Assembly (NCBI GenBank): GCA_942491995.1
Contig: CALOCX010000002.1
Coordinates: 35,758 to 99,757 of the forward strand
Origin: an uncultured Gammaproteobacteria bacterium
GTDB lineage: Bacteria; Pseudomonadota; Gammaproteobacteria; UBA9214
DNA: 64,000 bases
Direction: 5' to 3'
Below are positions 38,512-44,607 of the stretch, in pieces; position 1 is the stretch's first letter; every line of letters starts with the position of its first letter. A program made the translations under genes and the position numbers. The notes beneath the pieces are model-generated. The model saw nothing but the letters and a program-made list of their open reading frames with translations, was not told where the DNA came from and did no database searches.

Positions 38512-40665
38512 TCAGAACTTGCCGTAATAGCCTTCTTTCAGGGCATCATAGAGATTCGCGGCGGTGTGCATCTCACCGTCGTATTCGACCTCTTCATTGC
38601 CCTTGAGACTGACCTTGGAACCGTCGTCGAGCGTAAATTCATAGACGGTATTTTCCAGGTCCTCGCCTTTCACCAGCACACCCTGGAAGGCTTCCGGGTT
38701 AAAACGGAAGGTGGTACAGCCCTTCAGGCCCTTTTCATAGGCATAGCGGTAGATATCCTTGAACTCCTCAAACGGGTACTCGGTAGGGACATTGGCGGTC
38801 TTGGAGATGGAGGAATCCACCCACTTCTGCGCTGCCGCCTGGATGTCGACATGCTGTTTTGGCGTCACATTATCCGCCGCGATGAAATAATCCGGTAACG
38901 AATGCCCCTCGCCCTCCATACTCGCCGTGGCCTCGGCATTGACCAGTTCCCGGTAGGCAAGCAATTCAAACGAAAACACGTCCACCTTTTCCTTGGTCTT
39001 GCGTCCCTCCCGTATGACGTTACGGAAGTAGTGGTGCGCAAAGCTTGGCTCGATACCGTTACTGGCATTGTTGGCAAGCGACAGGGAGATGGTACCGGTG
39101 GGCGCAATCGAGCTGTGATGCGTAAAACGGGCACCGGTTTCCGCCAGTTGCCGTGTCAACTCGGGAGCGACCTCGGCGACGCGCTGCATGTAGCGGCTGT
39201 ACTTGGCATGCAACACCTTGCCCTTGACGAAATCTCCGGGCAGGTAGCCGTCACGGCGCATCTCCGGACGTTTGCGCAGCATCTCCTCGGTCACCTCGAA
39301 GTCCTCGTCCATGATCGGAGCAGGTCCCTTCTCCTTTGCCAGGTCGAGGGCAACCTGCCAGCCGGTGATGGCCAGTTCACGACTGACGCGTTCAGTAAAT
39401 TCGAGGGACGCCGCCTCGCCATACTTCATGCGCAACATGGTGGCCGTGGAACCCAGTCCCAGGAACCCCATGCCGTGACGGCGCTTGTTCATGATCGCCT
39501 CGCGCTGACCGTCCAGCGGCAGGCCATTGATCTCGACGACGTTATCGAGCATGCGCGTAAAGATGGCAACGACCTTGCGGAATTCCTCCCAGTCGAACTC
39601 GGCCTGCTCGGTAAACGGGTTGCGCACGAACTTGGTCAGGTTGACCGAGCCCAGCAGACAGGAACCGTACGGCGGCAGCGGCTGCTCGCCACAGGGGTTG
39701 GTGGCGCGGATATTTTCACAGAACCAGTTGTTGTTCATCTCGTTGACCTTGTCGATGAGAATGAACCCCGGTTCAGCGAAATCATAAGTAGAACTCATGA
39801 TCATGTCCCAGAGGCGCTGCGCCGGCACTGTCTTGTAGATGCGGCACGCAACCAGACCGGCATTGTTGGCAATGTAATCACCCTTGTAGGGCCACTCACG
39901 CCATACGATCTGTTGCGGATCGTGCAGATCGATACTGTCATCAAGTTCCTTGCGGTTGATTGGAAAGGCCAGTGGCCACTCATCCCGGTTCCTGACCGCA
40001 TCCATGAACTCGGTCGTGATCAGCAGCGACAGGTTGAACTGGCGCAGGCGGCCGTCTTCACGCTTGGCACGAATAAAATCCAGGACATCCGGGTGGCCCA
40101 CATCGAAGGTCGCCATCTGTGCACCACGCCGGCCACCGGCCGAGGACACGGTAAAACACATCTTGTCGTAGATGTCCATGAACGACAGCGGACCCGAGGT
40201 ATAGGCACCGGCACCGGAGACATAGGCCCCCTTGGGACGCAGCGTGGAGAACTCGTAACCGATGCCGCAACCGGCCTTCAGTGTCAGACCGGCTTCGTGC
40301 ACCTTTTCGAGAATATTGTTCATGGAGTCCTGCACCGTGCCGGAGACTGTGCAGTTAATGGTCGAAGTTGCCGGCTTGTGTTGCTGCGCACCGGCATTGG
40401 AGGTGATACGCCCTGCCGGAATGGCACCATGACGCAACGCCCACAGGAATTCCTTGTGCCAGAGCTCGCGAAGCTCCGGCGTGGCTTCAACATCGGCGAG
40501 CGCCCGGGCAACACGCTGGTAGGTCGAGTCGATGGTGTCATCCACCGGCGTGCCGTCTTTGGCCTTCAGGCGGTACTTGGTCTCCCATATATCCTGCGAG
40601 GCAGGCTGCAATGGAATATCAGCGACGCTGGTCGGTACAGCTTCGAGATGCGCAGTCGTTGTCAT
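38512..40665 (-). CDS. nrdJa: adenosylcobalamin-dependent ribonucleoside-diphosphate reductase, NrdJa
   Basis: 717 aa. RNR barrel motifs (NPCGEQPL, the thiyl Cys loop). Lacks the C-terminal part, which nrdJb carries. Confidence 0.9.
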   Translation of the reverse strand: MTTTAHLEAVPTSVADIPLQPASQDIWETKYRLKAKDGTPVDDTIDSTYQRVARALADVEATPELRELWHKEFLWALRHGAIPAGRITSNAGAQQHKPATSTINCTVSGTVQDSMNNILEKVHEAGLTLKAGCGIGYEFSTLRPKGAYVSGAGAYTSGPLSFMDIYDKMCFTVSSAGGRRGAQMATFDVGHPDVLDFIRAKREDGRLRQFNLSLLITTEFMDAVRNRDEWPLAFPINRKELDDSIDLHDPQQIVWREWPYKGDYIANNAGLVACRIYKTVPAQRLWDMIMSSTYDFAEPGFILIDKVNEMNNNWFCENIRATNPCGEQPLPPYGSCLLGSVNLTKFVRNPFTEQAEFDWEEFRKVVAIFTRMLDNVVEINGLPLDGQREAIMNKRRHGMGFLGLGSTATMLRMKYGEAASLEFTERVSRELAITGWQVALDLAKEKGPAPIMDEDFEVTEEMLRKRPEMRRDGYLPGDFVKGKVLHAKYSRYMQRVAEVAPELTRQLAETGARFTHHSSIAPTGTISLSLANNASNGIEPSFAHHYFRNVIREGRKTKEKVDVFSFELLAYRELVNAEATASMEGEGHSLPDYFIAADNVTPKQHVDIQAAAQKWVDSSISKTANVPTEYPFEEFKDIYRYAYEKGLKGCTTFRFNPEAFQGVLVKGEDLENTVYEFTLDDGSKVSLKGNEEVEYDGEMHTAANLYDALKEGYYGKF

Positions 40666-41019: not shown

Positions 41020-41724
41020 CTAGTGGGGGTGGGCATGATGCCCATGTCCGGCAGGATTCGCAAGCAACATCATGACCCCCATAAGGATCACCAGCAGGCC
41101 GGCGACCAGCCTGATTCGCGGGTCCTGTACCAGGCGCTTGAGGCTATTGAACGCAAGCCCCATGGTAATCATTACCGGCAAGGTACCCAGCCCGAAAGCC
41201 AGCATGATGCTGCCGCCAGCCGCCGCGGAACCACTTGTCAGTGCCAGCGCCAGTACCGCATAGACCATGCCGCAGGGCAACCAGCCCCAAACCAGCCCCA
41301 GCAGGTAAGCCTGGCCGGTACTGCGAACCGGGACGAAGCGCCGCCCCAGGGGTTCGATATATTTCCACAGCCGCGCCCCTGCCTGCTCCAGGTACAGCAA
41401 TGAGTGCCACCAGCCGGCCAGATAAATACCAAACAGGATCATGATGACACCCGCCACGATACGGCCCACCGGAAAACCCTCCAGCACCCCCGTCTCGCCC
41501 AACTGTTGTCCGAACAGACCCAGCAGCACGCCGGCAACCGTGTAGCTGCTGATGCGGCCGGTATTGTAGGCCAGCTGCGCGGCCACCAGGCGCCGGCGCG
41601 AGGTCTGTACATCCAGCGACAAGCCGGAACTCAGTGCGCCCACGATACCGCCGCACATACCGATACAATGGGTACCGCCAAGCAGGCCAACCAGGAATGC
41701 TGCAGTCAGGGATTCAATATTCAT
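41020..41724 (-). CDS. DsbD_2/UreH-like family membrane protein with an HCxxMCGG motif, associated with the cco cluster
   Basis: Polytopic membrane protein. GGTHCIGMCGGIVGAL lies in TM1. Just downstream of ccoH (fixH). Confidence 0.55.
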   Translation of the reverse strand: MNIESLTAAFLVGLLGGTHCIGMCGGIVGALSSGLSLDVQTSRRRLVAAQLAYNTGRISSYTVAGVLLGLFGQQLGETGVLEGFPVGRIVAGVIMILFGIYLAGWWHSLLYLEQAGARLWKYIEPLGRRFVPVRSTGQAYLLGLVWGWLPCGMVYAVLALALTSGSAAAGGSIMLAFGLGTLPVMITMGLAFNSLKRLVQDPRIRLVAGLLVILMGVMMLLANPAGHGHHAHPH

Positions 41725-41837
41725 AGGGGTCTCGTTTAACACCATCCAGCCAGCACGGCACAGGATCAATCACGGCAGACACACATCTTTGCCATCGCTG
41801 CGGCATGACTAACCATGTTTTGAATGAACGTCTGCGG

Positions 41838-42362
41838 TCACTTCAATGCCGGTAACCCGGCCTCTTCCATCGGCAATAGCAGCGTCGTTTCCGTTTGCGG
41901 GATCCGCATACTGCCCGAGAGTCGCCAGTCATCGGCCTCCAGTTGCAGGTACCAGTTGCCACGGGTCAGCTCATCGATGGCACCCGCATACACACCGTCA
42001 CCGCTATGTTGCAGGACAAGCACCTGGTCATACCCGGCCTGTGTGGGATGCAGCAGCGTAAAGGTCAGCGTCGCCGGTGATTCGATGAGAGCGCTCTCCA
42101 GTAACAACCGCACGCGATTATCCTGCAGATCAATGTCGATACTTGCCTTGAGCTGATAGCGCGCCGCTGCCGCGTCACGGGCCAAATCCATGTTGATGGC
42201 CTTGCCGCGCTTGTAGTAGTCATCGACCACCAGTCCATCAGCCGTACTCACCGCCTTGTAGATGGTGAACATGCTGGCGATGACAGCCGTCATGGGCAAG
42301 GAGATCATCAACCATACCCAGGGCTCGCGGTACCAGGGCCTTTTTGGATTCTGTGCAGTCAT
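41838..42362 (-). CDS. ccoH: cbb3 oxidase assembly protein CcoH/FixH
   Basis: 174 aa. N-terminal TM helix (PWVWLMISLPMTAVIASMFTIY) and the FixH fold. Located after ccoG. Confidence 0.75.
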   Translation of the reverse strand: MTAQNPKRPWYREPWVWLMISLPMTAVIASMFTIYKAVSTADGLVVDDYYKRGKAINMDLARDAAAARYQLKASIDIDLQDNRVRLLLESALIESPATLTFTLLHPTQAGYDQVLVLQHSGDGVYAGAIDELTRGNWYLQLEADDWRLSGSMRIPQTETTLLLPMEEAGLPALK

Positions 42363-42446
42363 AATTTAATAAACTTCCTTCATACATACAATTCGGTTTG
42401 AGCCAGCAGGTCGGCACTCAGAGTACAGATTCTTTTGACTTCGTGT

Positions 42447-42898
42447 TTCGCCCATTAGGGCGAGGTACTTTTCTTTGCTCCGCCAAAGAAAAGTACCCAA
42501 AAGAAAGGCGATCCCGGAGGCTTGCCCGCTACGCGGGTTTCCTGCGCTTCTCGAAAAGCCCGGCGCTCGCGCAACTCGCTACGCTCAAACAGGGCGCGAG
42601 CGTCATCCGGACTTTACTGCGATGCTCGGCTGCGCCAGACGGGTGGGGAAATTCAAAACCAACCCCCAGATACAGCCTCCTCATTCCCGTTTGCACTCAC
42701 CGAGTACCGCAGCCAGTCCGGGATCAAGGCGCGCACCCTGTTTGAGGCAGGTTTACCTGCCGAGTTGTGCGCGCCCCCGGAGTGGCGAGGAACGCAGGGG
42801 ATCGGCGCAGCCGATGAGTGCAGCCGGGCTGCCCTTCTCTTTGGGTACTTTCTCTTGGGCACTCAAGAGAAAGTACCTCGCCCGAACGGGCGAAATAA
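42447..42898. mobile_element. MITE-like non-coding element (~450 bp) with ~75-bp imperfect terminal inverted repeats, each containing nested hairpins
   Basis: The left end tttcgcccattagggcgaggtacttttctttgctccgccaaagaaaagtacccaaaagaaagg matches the reverse complement of the right end (tttcgcccgttcgggcgaggtactttctcttgagtgcccaagagaaagtacccaaagagaagg). No credible ORF inside. Inserted between ccoH and ccoG. Confidence 0.5.
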
Positions 42899-42909
42899 GC
42901 GGATAAAAT

Positions 42910-44325
42910 CTACTGTGGCCCCAGGAACCTGGCATTTTCCCTTGCAATCAGCGCAGCATCATCCGTAGCAACCAGTTCAAAGACAACATCACTGCTACGC
43001 ACCTCAAGGTCAGCCTCATCGGCACGCAGGCGCACCGGTAACTCCATGACCCCGCCGGATTCAACCTCGATGATATCCATATCCTTGTGTAGCGTGAGGC
43101 CCGGGATACCCGATACACTCAGATCATACTGATGTGCCCTGTCGTCCATGTTGAGGATCTTCAGAATGTAGACATTCTCGATCAACCCGTCGGTGGTTTC
43201 CCGATACAGCGTGTTACGGTCACGGATAACATCCAGCCCCAGCGAGATGCGCTGACTAAATGAATATGCAAAGGCCACCATGATAGCCAGCAGTATCACC
43301 GCGTAAATAATGATGCGCGGCCTGATGACGTGCGTCTTGCCGCCCTTCATGGCATGTTCCGTGGTGTACTTGATGAGCCCCCGCTCATAGCCCATCTTGT
43401 CCATCACATCATCACAGGCATCGATACAGGCCGAACAGGCAATACACTCGTATTGCAGGCCATCACGAATATCGATACCGGTCGGACAGACCTGTACACA
43501 CAAGGTGCAGTCAATACAGTCACCCAGTCCCTTGGTGGCGGGATCGTCGCTGCGCTTGCGCGAGCCGCGCGGTTCGCCACGCGTGGGTATATAGGAAACG
43601 ATCAGGGTGTCCTTGTCGAACATGGCGCTCTGGAAGCGCGCATAGGGACACATGTACTTGCACACCTGTTCGCGCATGAAGCCGGCGTTCCCGTAGGTCG
43701 CGAAGCCATAGAAAATAACCCAGAAGGTTTCCCAGGGGCCGAGGTTGAATGTCAGCAAGCGCTGACCCAGCTCGATGATAGGGGTGAAATAGCCGACGAA
43801 GGTAAATCCGGTCCAGGCCGCAAAGGCAATCCAGAGAAAATGCTTGGTGGCCTTGATGCGGAACTTGCGTGCACTCATGGGCAGGGCATCGAGCTTCTGC
43901 TGTTTCATGCGGTCACCCTCGACCTTGCGCTCGATCCACAGGAAGGCCTCGGTCCACACGGTCTGCGGGCAGGCATAGCCACACCAGATACGCCCGGCCA
44001 GCGCGGTGACGAAGAACAGCGTCAGGCCGGCGATAATCAGCAGCAGCGCCAGGTAGAAAAAGTCCTGCGGCCAGAGCGTGATGAAGAAGATATGAAACTT
44101 GCGCGCCGGCAGGTCCAGCAACAGCGCCTGGTGACCGTCCCAGCGCAGCCACGGCAGGATGTAGTAAACACCGAGCAGCCCGAGCACGCCAAGCACCCGC
44201 AGGCGTGCAAACAGCCCATGCACCTCACGCGGATAGATCTTCTCCGCCTTGGCGTAGAGGGATTGCTCGATCTGCTCGTCAGACCGGGGGGCCTTGGTGG
44301 GCCCGGTTGCGTCGGGGTTCGTCAT
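42910..44325 (-). CDS. ccoG: cbb3 oxidase accessory protein CcoG/FixG (4Fe-4S ferredoxin-type)
   Basis: 471 aa. CIDCTLCVQVCPTGIDIRDGLQYECIACSACIDAC ferredoxin motifs plus TM helices. Confidence 0.9.
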   Translation of the reverse strand: MTNPDATGPTKAPRSDEQIEQSLYAKAEKIYPREVHGLFARLRVLGVLGLLGVYYILPWLRWDGHQALLLDLPARKFHIFFITLWPQDFFYLALLLIIAGLTLFFVTALAGRIWCGYACPQTVWTEAFLWIERKVEGDRMKQQKLDALPMSARKFRIKATKHFLWIAFAAWTGFTFVGYFTPIIELGQRLLTFNLGPWETFWVIFYGFATYGNAGFMREQVCKYMCPYARFQSAMFDKDTLIVSYIPTRGEPRGSRKRSDDPATKGLGDCIDCTLCVQVCPTGIDIRDGLQYECIACSACIDACDDVMDKMGYERGLIKYTTEHAMKGGKTHVIRPRIIIYAVILLAIMVAFAYSFSQRISLGLDVIRDRNTLYRETTDGLIENVYILKILNMDDRAHQYDLSVSGIPGLTLHKDMDIIEVESGGVMELPVRLRADEADLEVRSSDVVFELVATDDAALIARENARFLGPQ

Positions 44326-44334
44326 ACTGGCCGC

Positions 44335-44607
44335 TTACTGGTCCCGGGAACCCGGGTTTTGTCGCATGCAGTTGGTGATCGCAAAATACAGGGTACCGAT
44401 TCCCGAGATGGCTGTTATCAGCCAGAACACCAGGAAGCCGATGGTATACATCCCCAGGCGGCTGATTTCAGTCTGCTCGCCGAAGGGGTACAGGTCGTCC
44501 GGGTCAAAGGCGGAAAAAAACAGCCCGGTGACGACAATCGCCACCAGGAAGGACGGCCACAGTACCGCTATGCACTTCTGCATCCCGGGTACCTGTTTCT
44601 CCGCCAT
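44335..44607 (-). CDS. small membrane protein between ccoP and ccoG (hypothetical)
   Basis: 90 aa with two TM helices. GGAG as SD. Confidence 0.45.
   Translation of the reverse strand: MAEKQVPGMQKCIAVLWPSFLVAIVVTGLFFSAFDPDDLYPFGEQTEISRLGMYTIGFLVFWLITAISGIGTLYFAITNCMRQNPGSRDQ

Follow-up and report, generated by a model that had tools for sequence, protein, structure and literature searches.

A segment of about 450 bp that lies between the ccoG and ccoH genes of an uncultured Gammaproteobacteria bacterium is one copy of a widespread dispersed non-coding repeat family. The segment belongs to a stretch of 64,000 nucleotides (contig CALOCX010000002.1, positions 35,758 to 99,757 of the forward strand; hereafter the window), in which an initial annotation had described it as resembling a miniature inverted-repeat transposable element (MITE), and had named a repeat of the repetitive extragenic palindromic (REP) or bacterial interspersed mosaic element (BIME) kind and a structured RNA that affects ccoH expression as other possibilities. 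The basic module of the family is a structured unit of ~215 nt, which occurs either alone or as a head-to-head dimer, and the window element is such a dimer. It is closest in kind to REPIN/BIME elements and foldback MITEs, and REP/BIME-like is the better of the two repeat labels. The favoured reading, to which a probability of about 0.5 is given, is that the segment is a REPIN/BIME/MITE-like non-autonomous dispersed element that would act in its single-stranded form and has long been resident in the ccoG–ccoH spacer. A dedicated cco-specific regulatory RNA is unlikely as the primary explanation because the same element adjoins unrelated genes elsewhere, so a structured RNA for ccoH is not retained as the reason for the sequence, although a local side effect on ccoH is possible.

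The symmetric core of the element spans positions 42446–42895 of the window (TTTCGCCC...GGGCGAAA), inside the ccoG–ccoH spacer and with limits 1–3 nt away from those first annotated, and a weaker inverted-repeat extension continues outward to 42433 and 42908. A repeat search delineated inverted arms of 85 nt (42433–42517 and 42824–42908) that are 71% complementary without gaps, and a gapped alignment of the 75-nt ends gave 60 identities over ~71 aligned positions (~85%), which bears out the annotated similarity of the ends; the best 75-nt inverted repeat in five 6-kb shuffles reached only 36–39 matches out of 75. The two palindromes described for each end are found at both ends. The first, hairpin H1, is CGCCC-ATTA-GGGCG on the left (42449–42462) and CGCCC-GAAC-GGGCG on the right (42879–42892). 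The second, hairpin H2, has a perfect 14-bp stem both on the left (GGTACTTTTCTTTG/CAAAGAAAAGTACC, 42464–42497) and on the right (GGTACTTTCTCTTG/CAAGAGAAAGTACC, 42844–42877), with a chance expectation of 0.00 for the H2 pattern in the window. The interior is an imperfect palindrome as well, with further inverted repeats inside, and the entire segment folds into one long hairpin (z = -10.7 against shuffles). In agreement with the initial annotation, the interior is non-coding and contains further stem-loops: single-base insertions and deletions and compensatory base-pair changes separate the copies, and an internal palindrome, a small hairpin (hp3) and a long helix (P4) are present. Repeat and pattern searches of the 64-kb window found no second copy of the element there.

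Copies are abundant elsewhere. An exact-motif scan with the 19-base end motif CGCCCNNNNGGGCGAGGTACTTT, with one genome per species, revealed at least 120 loci in Comamonadaceae (Acidovorax, Curvibacter, Hylemonella, Polaromonas, Comamonas), Rhodocyclaceae, many uncultured Gammaproteobacteria and several Clostridia, and several loci per genome are common among the matches listed. BLAST of a 480-bp segment against the matched loci (numbered here with the letter L) identified full-length copies with 89% (L074), 87% (L031) and 85% (L020) identity and others with 70–73% identity (L083, L002, L039 and L054). L020 and L031 come from one metagenome-assembled genome (MAG); L074 and L126 share a contig, on which L074 is 214 kb away from the cco operon. 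In a multiple alignment of the full-length copies, the similarity starts at TTTCGCCC and stops sharply at GGGCGAAA, and the flanks are unrelated. Two metagenome contigs with identical CcoH break off inside the left end of the element (L121 1–41 and L122 1–80), indicating that the element is multi-copy in those samples, since assemblies typically break at repeats. A blastn search of plasmid and chromid records extended the range of the H2 module to Variovorax, Ralstonia, Burkholderia, Aeromonas, Pseudoalteromonas and Pasteurella. Every placement examined is intergenic, and some lie within operons, such as aceF–lpdA in B. cepacia, dapF–DUF484/xerC in P. multocida, and an ABC transporter operon of a Clostridia MAG, where the copy separates the gene for the binding protein from that for the ATPase. 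No match to the element was found in 2.9 million viral contigs or in 5,426 E. coli genomes. A single-copy sequence with a conserved position in related genomes and no inverted ends elsewhere had been named as the outcome that would speak against a repeat; the sequence is not single-copy, with full-length copies and end motifs at many unrelated loci, whereas its position is indeed conserved in relatives. An Rfam search, which had also been proposed, yielded no family that matches the element: a permissive scan of window positions 41500–44000 returned only chance-level matches at E ≤ 10, and gathering-threshold scans of 17 family loci returned RF02421, beside one copy, as the sole match. Searches of the literature by sequence strings and for MITEs in Comamonadaceae, which were incomplete, found no description of the element, and the family is apparently undescribed.

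The copies are built in a modular way. A profile of the end module found 48 inward-facing pairs 100–900 bp apart and many single ends. The Rhodocyclaceae type consists of a single unit of ~215 nt, sharply bounded on both sides, and two units face each other in Comamonadaceae and in the gamma type to which the window element belongs. The dimer of the gamma type is polar, the A end having TTTTCTTTG and the B end TTCTCTT, which is a consistent difference between the two units. The heads of the units read TTTCGCCC..GGGCGAGGTAC, and only the two heads, or end modules, are left in miniature forms (L065, L126 and L135). The outermost 15–60 nt of the inverted ends are specific to the subfamily, and the subterminal structure is conserved.

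RNAalifold analysis of 33 diverse units, with pair counts made on the named structure, indicates that the single-strand structure of the unit is under selection. The named helices are H1, H2 with its 5-bp spacer helix and 9-bp pyrimidine/purine helix, a pseudoknot stem, and P4. Across the 33 units, 95.1% of the cells are paired compared with 75.5% in shuffles, the covariation score is 0.474 compared with 0.123 in shuffled and at most 0.095 in slid controls, and 25 of 38 pairs have changed on both sides. The H1 stem occurs as CGCCC/GGGCG, GCGCC/GGCGC, CGGCC/GGCCG and CGTCC/GGACG, and the 5-bp spacer helix as GGTAC/GTACC, CTTAC/GTAAG, GTTCC/GGAAC, GTGAC/GTCAC and CCTAC/GTAGG. The pseudoknot stem joins the 3′ half of the H2 loop with the 4–7 nt that follow a purine tract downstream of H2; compensatory changes are seen in four of its five pairs, the versions include TCGCC/GGCGA, GCGGCC/GGCCGC, GTGCCC/GGGCAC and GGCGACC/GGTCGCC, and the complementarity between the loop and the downstream segment averages 4.86 nt against 2.64 ± 0.21 nt when shuffled. 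In P4, two conserved boxes CTGCGnTnCTCG pair together, with conserved T.T and C.T mismatches, and enclose a variable stem and the loop AACTCG-(variable hairpin)-CTCAAACA; pairing reaches 99% in helix 4 and 91% in helix 5 of this region, where 11 of 17 pairs have changed on both sides. Selection on the whole 450-nt dimer hairpin was considered and rejected: mismatches between the arms are mostly transversions, and G-U and A-C mismatches number 124 and 111.

The purine tract obeys a second rule. It is 8–9 nt long and follows H2 after a single C, and its sequence read 5′ to 3′ equals the H2 purine arm read 3′ to 5′. This mirror rule holds at positions 1–7 in 73–80 of 82 unique variants, and the 593 mirror matches compare with 465 ± 10.6 for shuffled partners, with none of 2000 shuffles as high. 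At least six versions of the tract covary with the arm (AAAAGAAA, AAAGAAAA, AAAGAGAA, AAAAGAA, AAAGAAAG and AAAAAGAA). The 9-bp part of H2 shows almost only U-A to C-G exchanges, the arms staying all-pyrimidine and all-purine, whereas the other helices show all four pair types. Explanations of the tract as a direct repeat or as an alternative pairing partner were rejected, with only 6/82 and 10/82 matches at the informative positions, and no consistent Watson–Crick complement was found in the outer flank, in the partner unit or in the solo units inspected. The family carries three consecutive homopyrimidine/homopurine tracts, the third of which mirrors the purine strand, and a mirror homopurine strand beside its own duplex is the defining requirement of an intramolecular triplex.

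Two triplex geometries come into question. The order on the inward strand, pyrimidine – purine – mirror purine, corresponds to class II, the purine motif, and the order on the outward strand, Hoogsteen pyrimidine – pyrimidine – purine, to class IV, the pyrimidine motif, in the classification defined for the BoxC/PIT/TMECO repeats of E. coli, which form intrastrand triplexes (PMC4666352). In RNA, the pyrimidine motif forms triplexes and the purine motif does not (PMC4666352). The outward strand reads CGCC-UUUCUUUU-G-GGUAC-UUUUCUUUG-loop-CAAAGAAAAGUACC, in the order stem 1 – U-rich loop 1 – stem 2 – stem 1′ – stem 2′, with loop 1 parallel to the purine strand and in register with it from the junction. 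The outward module fits a major-groove triplex of U.A-U and C+.G-C triples, which would be possible in RNA or DNA, and the head is modelled as an H-type pseudoknot with up to 8–9 possible base triples. On general helix geometry, a single nucleotide should be able to span 5–6 bp across the deep groove of an A-form RNA helix but not of B-DNA, and such bridging would explain the conserved 1-nt linker and 5-bp spacer helix. A tentative proposal, with the odds against it, is that the head is a previously undescribed cross-phylum fold: an H-type pseudoknot in which a pyrimidine strand of 8–9 nt would lie in the deep groove of the 14-bp hairpin with continuous U.A-U/C+.G-C triples and with a 5-bp spacer helix and 1-nt linker tuned to A-form geometry, formed in RNA transcribed outward through the ends of a selfish or commensal repeat, where it could serve as a handle for a copying enzyme or for RNA stability.

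The same tracts admit an explanation at the level of DNA, according to which the element would be a non-B structure like E. coli BoxC/PIT: when single-stranded or supercoiled, its DNA would adopt an intrastrand purine-motif triplex or H-DNA, and cruciforms as well, with no role in RNA and with local instability (deletions, inversions, an insertion hotspot) as its consequence. The order of pyrimidine arm, loop, purine arm, loop and mirror purine tract is exactly the class II arrangement of an intrastrand triplex, and the TMECO sites of E. coli likewise occur as inverted pairs with an excess of intergenic change (PMC4666352). Internal deletions are frequent and an inversion is seen at the ccoG–ccoH copy, and other elements have inserted in the loop or apex of H2 (L029, L017, L016 and L100). 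However, a 1-nt linker cannot span the covarying 5-bp GGTAC/GTACC helix in B-type geometry, so that on the grounds of helix geometry the hairpin extension and the triplex would not coexist in DNA, and an element that is only a triplex neither explains the covariation in the rest of the ~215-nt unit (P4, boxes and loops) nor accounts for how the copies spread. This DNA-level explanation is improbable.

The history of the ccoG–ccoH locus was traced by searching for CcoH homologues and fetching their contigs, with relatedness expressed as CcoH identity to the window. A full-length element occupies the spacer at 92% identity (L131) and at 84% (L132 and L133). At 89%, L126 has an element with an internal deletion and L127–L130 retain one head and one H1. 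The element is present in the opposite orientation to that of the window at 73% (L134) and again at 71% (L139), and at 71% two contigs of the same species carry a deleted (L135) and a full (L136) copy. At 70% a different inverted-repeat element takes its place (L138), and at 66% the spacer of 127 bp has no element (L137). Thus the element is in the spacer of all eight relative CcoH types with 71–92% identity and absent at 66% and 70%, and this distribution indicates that it is an insertion that is old within the clade. L135 and L136 encode the same CcoH protein, but compared with L136 the element of L135 (1600–1670) lacks ~270 bp of the interior, the deletion being bordered by short TCCGG repeats and accompanied by a tandem duplication of 24 nt, so the interior is unstable within a species. 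The unrelated element of L138 (720–990) is ~270 bp long, with near-perfect inverted ends of ~24 nt (TGTGGTGTAACGAATAACGTG.AC) and CTAG on both flanks; its presence implies that elements of more than one kind land in the ccoG–ccoH spacer, and that expression of ccoH must tolerate large structured inserts.

Such persistence at one site raises the possibility that the family is a host-useful RNA module, like REP sequences in operons, which would attenuate transcription by an inward-facing hairpin and U-run, block 3′-to-5′ exonucleases by its knotted fold, and so set the ratio of upstream to downstream expression (here ccoNOQP–G to ccoH), its copies being kept by selection in place. The position between ccoG and ccoH is kept across the whole range of 71–92% CcoH identity, and the element there has changed less than the third codon positions of ccoH; members of the family reside inside the operons named above; and the end modules outlast deletions of the interior. 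Both ends resemble inward-facing terminators when G-U pairs extend H1 into GGTAC (4 sites compared with 1.0 ± 1.1 expected), and H1 stands directly after the 3′ end of a gene in 22 of 28 solo units. However, the G-U extension is weak, the T-run begins 4–5 nt beyond the strong H1 stem, so that termination may be weak, and relatives manage without the element (L137) or with an unrelated one (L138). Dimers show no preferred orientation relative to the flanking genes, some of which are divergent (6 convergent, 16 tandem and 5 divergent arrangements). In the sense orientation after a gene the third strand is rich in purines, and RNA does not form triplexes of the purine motif (PMC4666352); BoxC/PIT elements showed neither promoter nor terminator activity (PMC4666352). 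An RNA module of this kind is on the whole unlikely as the primary explanation of the family.

The evidence on the strand that would be active, as read from substitution patterns and gene orientation, is mixed. Among the non-Watson–Crick pairs of H2 on the inward strand, A.C outnumbers G.T by 27 to 8 in 82 unique hairpins (p = 0.002, the hairpins not being independent), so the outward strand, which keeps wobble pairs, is favoured. The interior helices contain too few wobble pairs to choose a strand, and the elements show no significant orientation with respect to local GC skew (31/51 and 14/22).

If the ends were those of a canonical MITE, that is, of a deletion derivative of an insertion sequence (IS) with a DDE transposase, the terminal inverted repeats would be recognised as double strands, target-site duplications would flank the copies and the hairpins would be incidental. 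The inverted ends, the small size, the lack of an open reading frame (ORF), the many copies and the intergenic placement all fit this view, as do inverted units 1–3 kb apart that enclose unrelated cargo in the manner of transposase-less mobile cassettes. On the other hand, the target-site duplications that had been proposed as a check are not visible at any of 16 gamma-type or 27 beta-type copies, and none of the pairs examined has a transposase within it or next to it. In Pfam scans of 17 ORFs that lie between units or adjoin them, there was no partner resembling a transposase, TnpB or the REP-associated tyrosine transposase (RAYT), including no match to Y1_Tnp; the ORFs inspected beside solo units are ordinary genes, except for one unrelated IS30-like gene in L106, and no conserved flanking tetranucleotide was seen among the copies. 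Furthermore, single units with one 'end' are common and sharply bounded, the outermost termini vary by subfamily whereas the subterminal structure is conserved, and recognition as double strands would not call for the covariation that is seen in the hairpins, the pseudoknot and the mirror tract. A canonical MITE is accordingly very unlikely, and the MITE label of the initial annotation holds only in part: multiple copies, the non-coding character, inverted ends and relatives whose spacers lack the element (L137 and L138) agree with it, but no target-site duplication and no transposase-bearing relative were found, and the 'terminal repeats' are two inverted units of ~215 nt that also exist alone.

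A REPIN/BIME/MITE-like non-autonomous element that acts as a single strand would have entered permissive spacer DNA immediately downstream of the ccoG stop codon in an ancestral member of the clade, and would then have persisted there, with inversion or re-insertion and partial deletion in some lineages. The recognition module is suggested to be the outer part of the unit folded as a single strand, with the GC-rich H1, the 14-bp H2 of which 9 bp are strictly pyrimidine–purine, the mirror third strand and the loop stem of 4–7 nt. The family may be maintained through this fold, which could be recognised by a copying enzyme acting in trans, or could be a roadblock at the 3′ ends of transcripts, or both. 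Local effects on the cco genes might include partial termination at the inward-facing hairpin and T-run after ccoG, protection of the upstream ccoNOQP–G message, or both.

Several observations weigh against this reading. Mobility is deduced from the distribution of the copies, and the exact-motif scan is biased to a single motif variant. A related autonomous element with the same ends and a transposase was not found in the 8-kb blocks around about 120 loci that defined the enzyme search, and the search for target-site duplications outside the ends was made where the outermost termini are uncertain. No precise pair of empty and filled sites was found; at the ccoG–ccoH locus, L137 and L138 have spacers so different from that of the window that the insertion point cannot be placed to the base. 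The H2 asymmetry derives from related sequences and may represent only 7–8 independent events, and it conflicts with the invariant TT...GG flanks of H1, which pair only as G-U on the inward strand. In the 22 of 28 solo units in which the gene on the H1 side points into the unit, the mRNA of that gene carries the inward strand and not the outward strand favoured by the triplex. Finally, the identity of the element across relatives (95, 92, 88 and 80%) exceeds that at the third codon positions of ccoH (83, 72, 63 and 60%), and conservation above that of synonymous sites fits selection in place, and hence a host function, at least as well as it fits a repeat that is purely selfish. The same level of similarity (85–89%) is seen in non-orthologous copies from other genomes. 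Slow replicator dynamics have been proposed for REPINs, and the conservation at this locus could reflect selection in place, replacement at a hotspot, or dynamics of that sort.

In the window, the parts of the left unit follow one another on the plus strand. The weak outer extension consists of a T-rich TTTTGAC motif and a spacer (42433–42445), the arms reaching 42433, and its counterpart at this offset in other copies is (G)TAC..TTTTTTAC(C)-N5-7. H1 with its flanks (TTTCGCCC-ATTA-GGGCGA, 42446–42463) is a hairpin with compensatory changes throughout the family, and its stem can be extended into GGTAC through G-U pairs to give, when read inward, a terminator-like hairpin followed by a T-run. 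H2 (42464–42497) comprises the 5-bp GGTAC/GTACC spacer helix, the 9-bp all-pyrimidine/all-purine helix (TTTTCTTTG/CAAAGAAAA) and the loop CTCCGC. The linker C, tract D (AAAAGAAA) and GGCG(A) occupy 42498–42511, as delimited by the mirror rule and loop complementarity; tract D mirrors the H2 purine arm, GGCG(A) complements the 3′ half of the H2 loop, and the two are modelled as the third strand and the second stem of the predicted pseudoknot. The small variable hairpin hp3 (CCCGC-TAC-GCGGG, 42525–42537) is longer in L039 and L054 through an insertion that preserves pairing. P4, taken from the RNAalifold consensus, is a long irregular helix (42541–42629) in which box 1 (CCTGCGCTTCTCG, 42541–42553) pairs with box 3 (CTGCGATGCTCGG, 42617–42629) around the variable stem, with the conserved loop AACTCG...CTCAAACA.

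A variable centre without strand (42644–42690) separates the two inverted units; it is the least conserved part among full-length copies and the place of length variation and deletions in relatives. The right unit lies on the minus strand. Its body (42691–42830), identified by internal inverted repeats, has the boxes and helices of the left unit in inverted and diverged form, and the right units of L083, L136, L074, L039 and L054 align with left units in the unit alignment made for RNAalifold. Its third-strand tract and pseudoknot partner (42831–42843; GCCC-TTCTCTTT-G on the plus strand, C-AAAGAGAA-GGGC on the minus strand) were assigned by the mirror rule and loop pairing, AAAGAGAA mirroring the purine arm CAAGAGAAAG and GGGCA pairing with the loop TGCCC. 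The right H2 follows (42844–42877), and then H1 as TCGCCC-GAAC-GGGCGA (42878–42895), followed by AA and located 15 nt downstream of the ccoG stop codon. The weak outer extension of the right end (ATTTTATCCGCTTA on the minus strand, 42896–42908) stands directly after that stop codon, the arms reaching 42908.

The genes on both sides lie outside the element on the minus strand, and Pfam confirms the annotated position in the ccoG–ccoH gap: ccoG (FixG; 42910–44325) is upstream, with matches to Fer4_18 (3e-43) and FixG_C (5e-30), and ccoH (FixH; 41838–42362) is downstream, with a match to FixH (1e-39). The start of ccoH in the gene calls of relatives is ~15 nt further in, giving a protein of 169 aa. 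Pfam also confirms ccoNOQP ahead of ccoG and ccoH. Downstream of ccoH, a DsbD_2-family membrane protein (41020–41769, minus strand) and a class II-type ribonucleotide reductase (38512–40665, minus strand) are encoded in place of ccoI/ccoS, and a conserved ORF of 90 aa without a Pfam match (44335–44607, minus strand) lies between ccoP and ccoG; both this ORF and the DsbD_2/ribonucleotide reductase arrangement are kept in every relative fetched.

Further observations concern the surroundings of the units in other genomes. One or two extra partial heads are found in tandem just outside complete elements (L131 200–262, L132 320–420, L031 5145–5170 and L020 4735–4775); each consists of the GC hairpin H1 and then GGTGCTTCTTTTACC without the second arm, and may be a trace of an earlier copy or of insertions that recurred at one site. 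In one Burkholderiales MAG, at least 150 nt of a further repeat precede the unit in all six copies (L007, L014, L061, L079, L107 and L120), which are mostly at contig ends, and the family is mosaic in that genome. Inward-facing units 1–3 kb apart occur at L021 (4987–7695), L040 (4106–7110), L082 (5408–7417), L063 (4669–6300), L073 (4644–6365) and L097 (2844–4392). The genes between distant paired units encode a TIR-domain protein, a protein with an AbiJ N-terminal domain, BrnA-like and PNPOx-like proteins and several proteins without a Pfam match, and they look like cargo, partly defence-like, that has been carried or trapped. One unit (L029 1535–1560) is interrupted exactly in the H2 loop by an insert that starts with TGTATGGACCGCAGAC and encodes MPWSTRDTMSLREEFIALANHEGANRRELCRRFGISPQTGYKW, a putative transposase of the IS481 family. 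Two further copies are broken at the same hairpin (L026 at ~950 and L058 at ~1650), which suggests that H2 is an insertion target. A multi-hairpin insert of ~90–110 nt sits in the H2 apex of L017 (6705–6800), L100 and L016 (1500–1690), one of them from Clostridia, and the base of H2 and the downstream purine tract are retained.

Most extragenic repeats are short hairpins without evidence of higher-order structure, whereas here a large family that extends from Comamonadaceae to Clostridia and includes Pasteurella, Aeromonas and Burkholderia shares a common head whose three strands covary as a triple helix with a pseudoknot anchor would require, and the comparative support for a natural triplex is stronger than for BoxC of E. 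coli. Formed in RNA, the fold would amount to a long triple helix of bacterial origin that might help the RNA to survive or the element to be copied, and it could be a bacterial counterpart of the eukaryotic and viral triple-helix elements of RNA stability. If it forms in DNA, it would provide a defined model for triplex-driven instability and hotspot behaviour. The family also breaks metagenome assemblies and yields long spurious ORFs, and so should be masked or annotated.

Among known systems, the REP/BIME/REPIN elements with their RAYT transposases share many features with this family: they are non-coding and intergenic, have many copies per genome and encode no enzyme; their palindromic unit is single or in inverted pairs able to form a long hairpin; and they persist at a site through long vertical descent, are targeted by other insertion sequences and may sit within operons. 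The unit here is, however, ~215 nt long with several covarying helices and a pseudoknot, whereas a REP is a hairpin of 20–40 nt; there is no GTAG-type head, and none of the copies was seen to have a RAYT (Y1 transposase) gene as a neighbour. REPs are usually species-specific, whereas a motif of 19–24 nt is common across phyla here. MITEs, foldback elements and transposase-less mobile insertion cassettes are similar in being small (190–650 bp), dispersed and without an ORF, with inverted ends and with larger versions that hold cargo between the ends, but no target-site duplication and no parent IS were found here, the ends are whole structured units that are also found alone, and the termini are subfamily-specific. 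The IS200/IS605 miniatures known as palindrome-associated transposable elements (PATEs) resemble the family in that subterminal hairpins matter over terminal bases, in a probably strand-specific single-stranded form and in the lack of target-site duplication; they have no inverted ends, whereas the family has them and shows no TnpA/TnpB beside the units and no conserved flanking tetranucleotide.

The predicted Burkholderia small RNA Bp1_684 (RF02421) matches the aceF–lpdA spacer of B. cepacia (L124 2398–2509, minus strand, 118.8 bits), where it overlaps H1 and the first H2 arm on the outward strand; it is mostly outside the element, excludes H2, the third strand and the unit body, and has no match in the window. 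The BoxC/PIT/TMECO repeats are also intergenic, with pyrimidine – purine – purine tracts (class II), occasional inverted pairs and local intergenic deletions (PMC4666352). The complementary strand of TMECO belongs to class IV by the 5′-to-3′ definitions of that paper, although class III is listed there (PMC4666352). In contrast to these G/C-rich repeats, the tracts here are A/T-rich (T-A.A, or U.A-U on the other strand), so that the TMECO consensus CCCTCNCCC-N3-6-GGGNGAGGG-N3-GGGNGAGGG does not describe the element, which is unrelated; the mirror rule covaries in at least six variants, a pseudoknot anchor and a 5-bp spacer helix are added, and the whole arrangement is only the head of a ~215-nt unit.

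H-type pseudoknots with major-groove U.A-U triples are known from telomerase RNA and from the SAM-II and preQ1-II riboswitches, and triple helices also occur in ENE and MALAT1. The order of elements on the outward strand is the same as in these triple-helix RNAs, and loop 1 runs along the purine strand of stem 2 in parallel orientation, in register for U.A-U and C+.G-C triples. No sequence or Rfam relationship links them to the family, whose predicted triplex would be longer (8–9 triples) and belongs to a repeat element instead of a riboswitch, a telomerase RNA or a stability element of viral and long non-coding RNAs.

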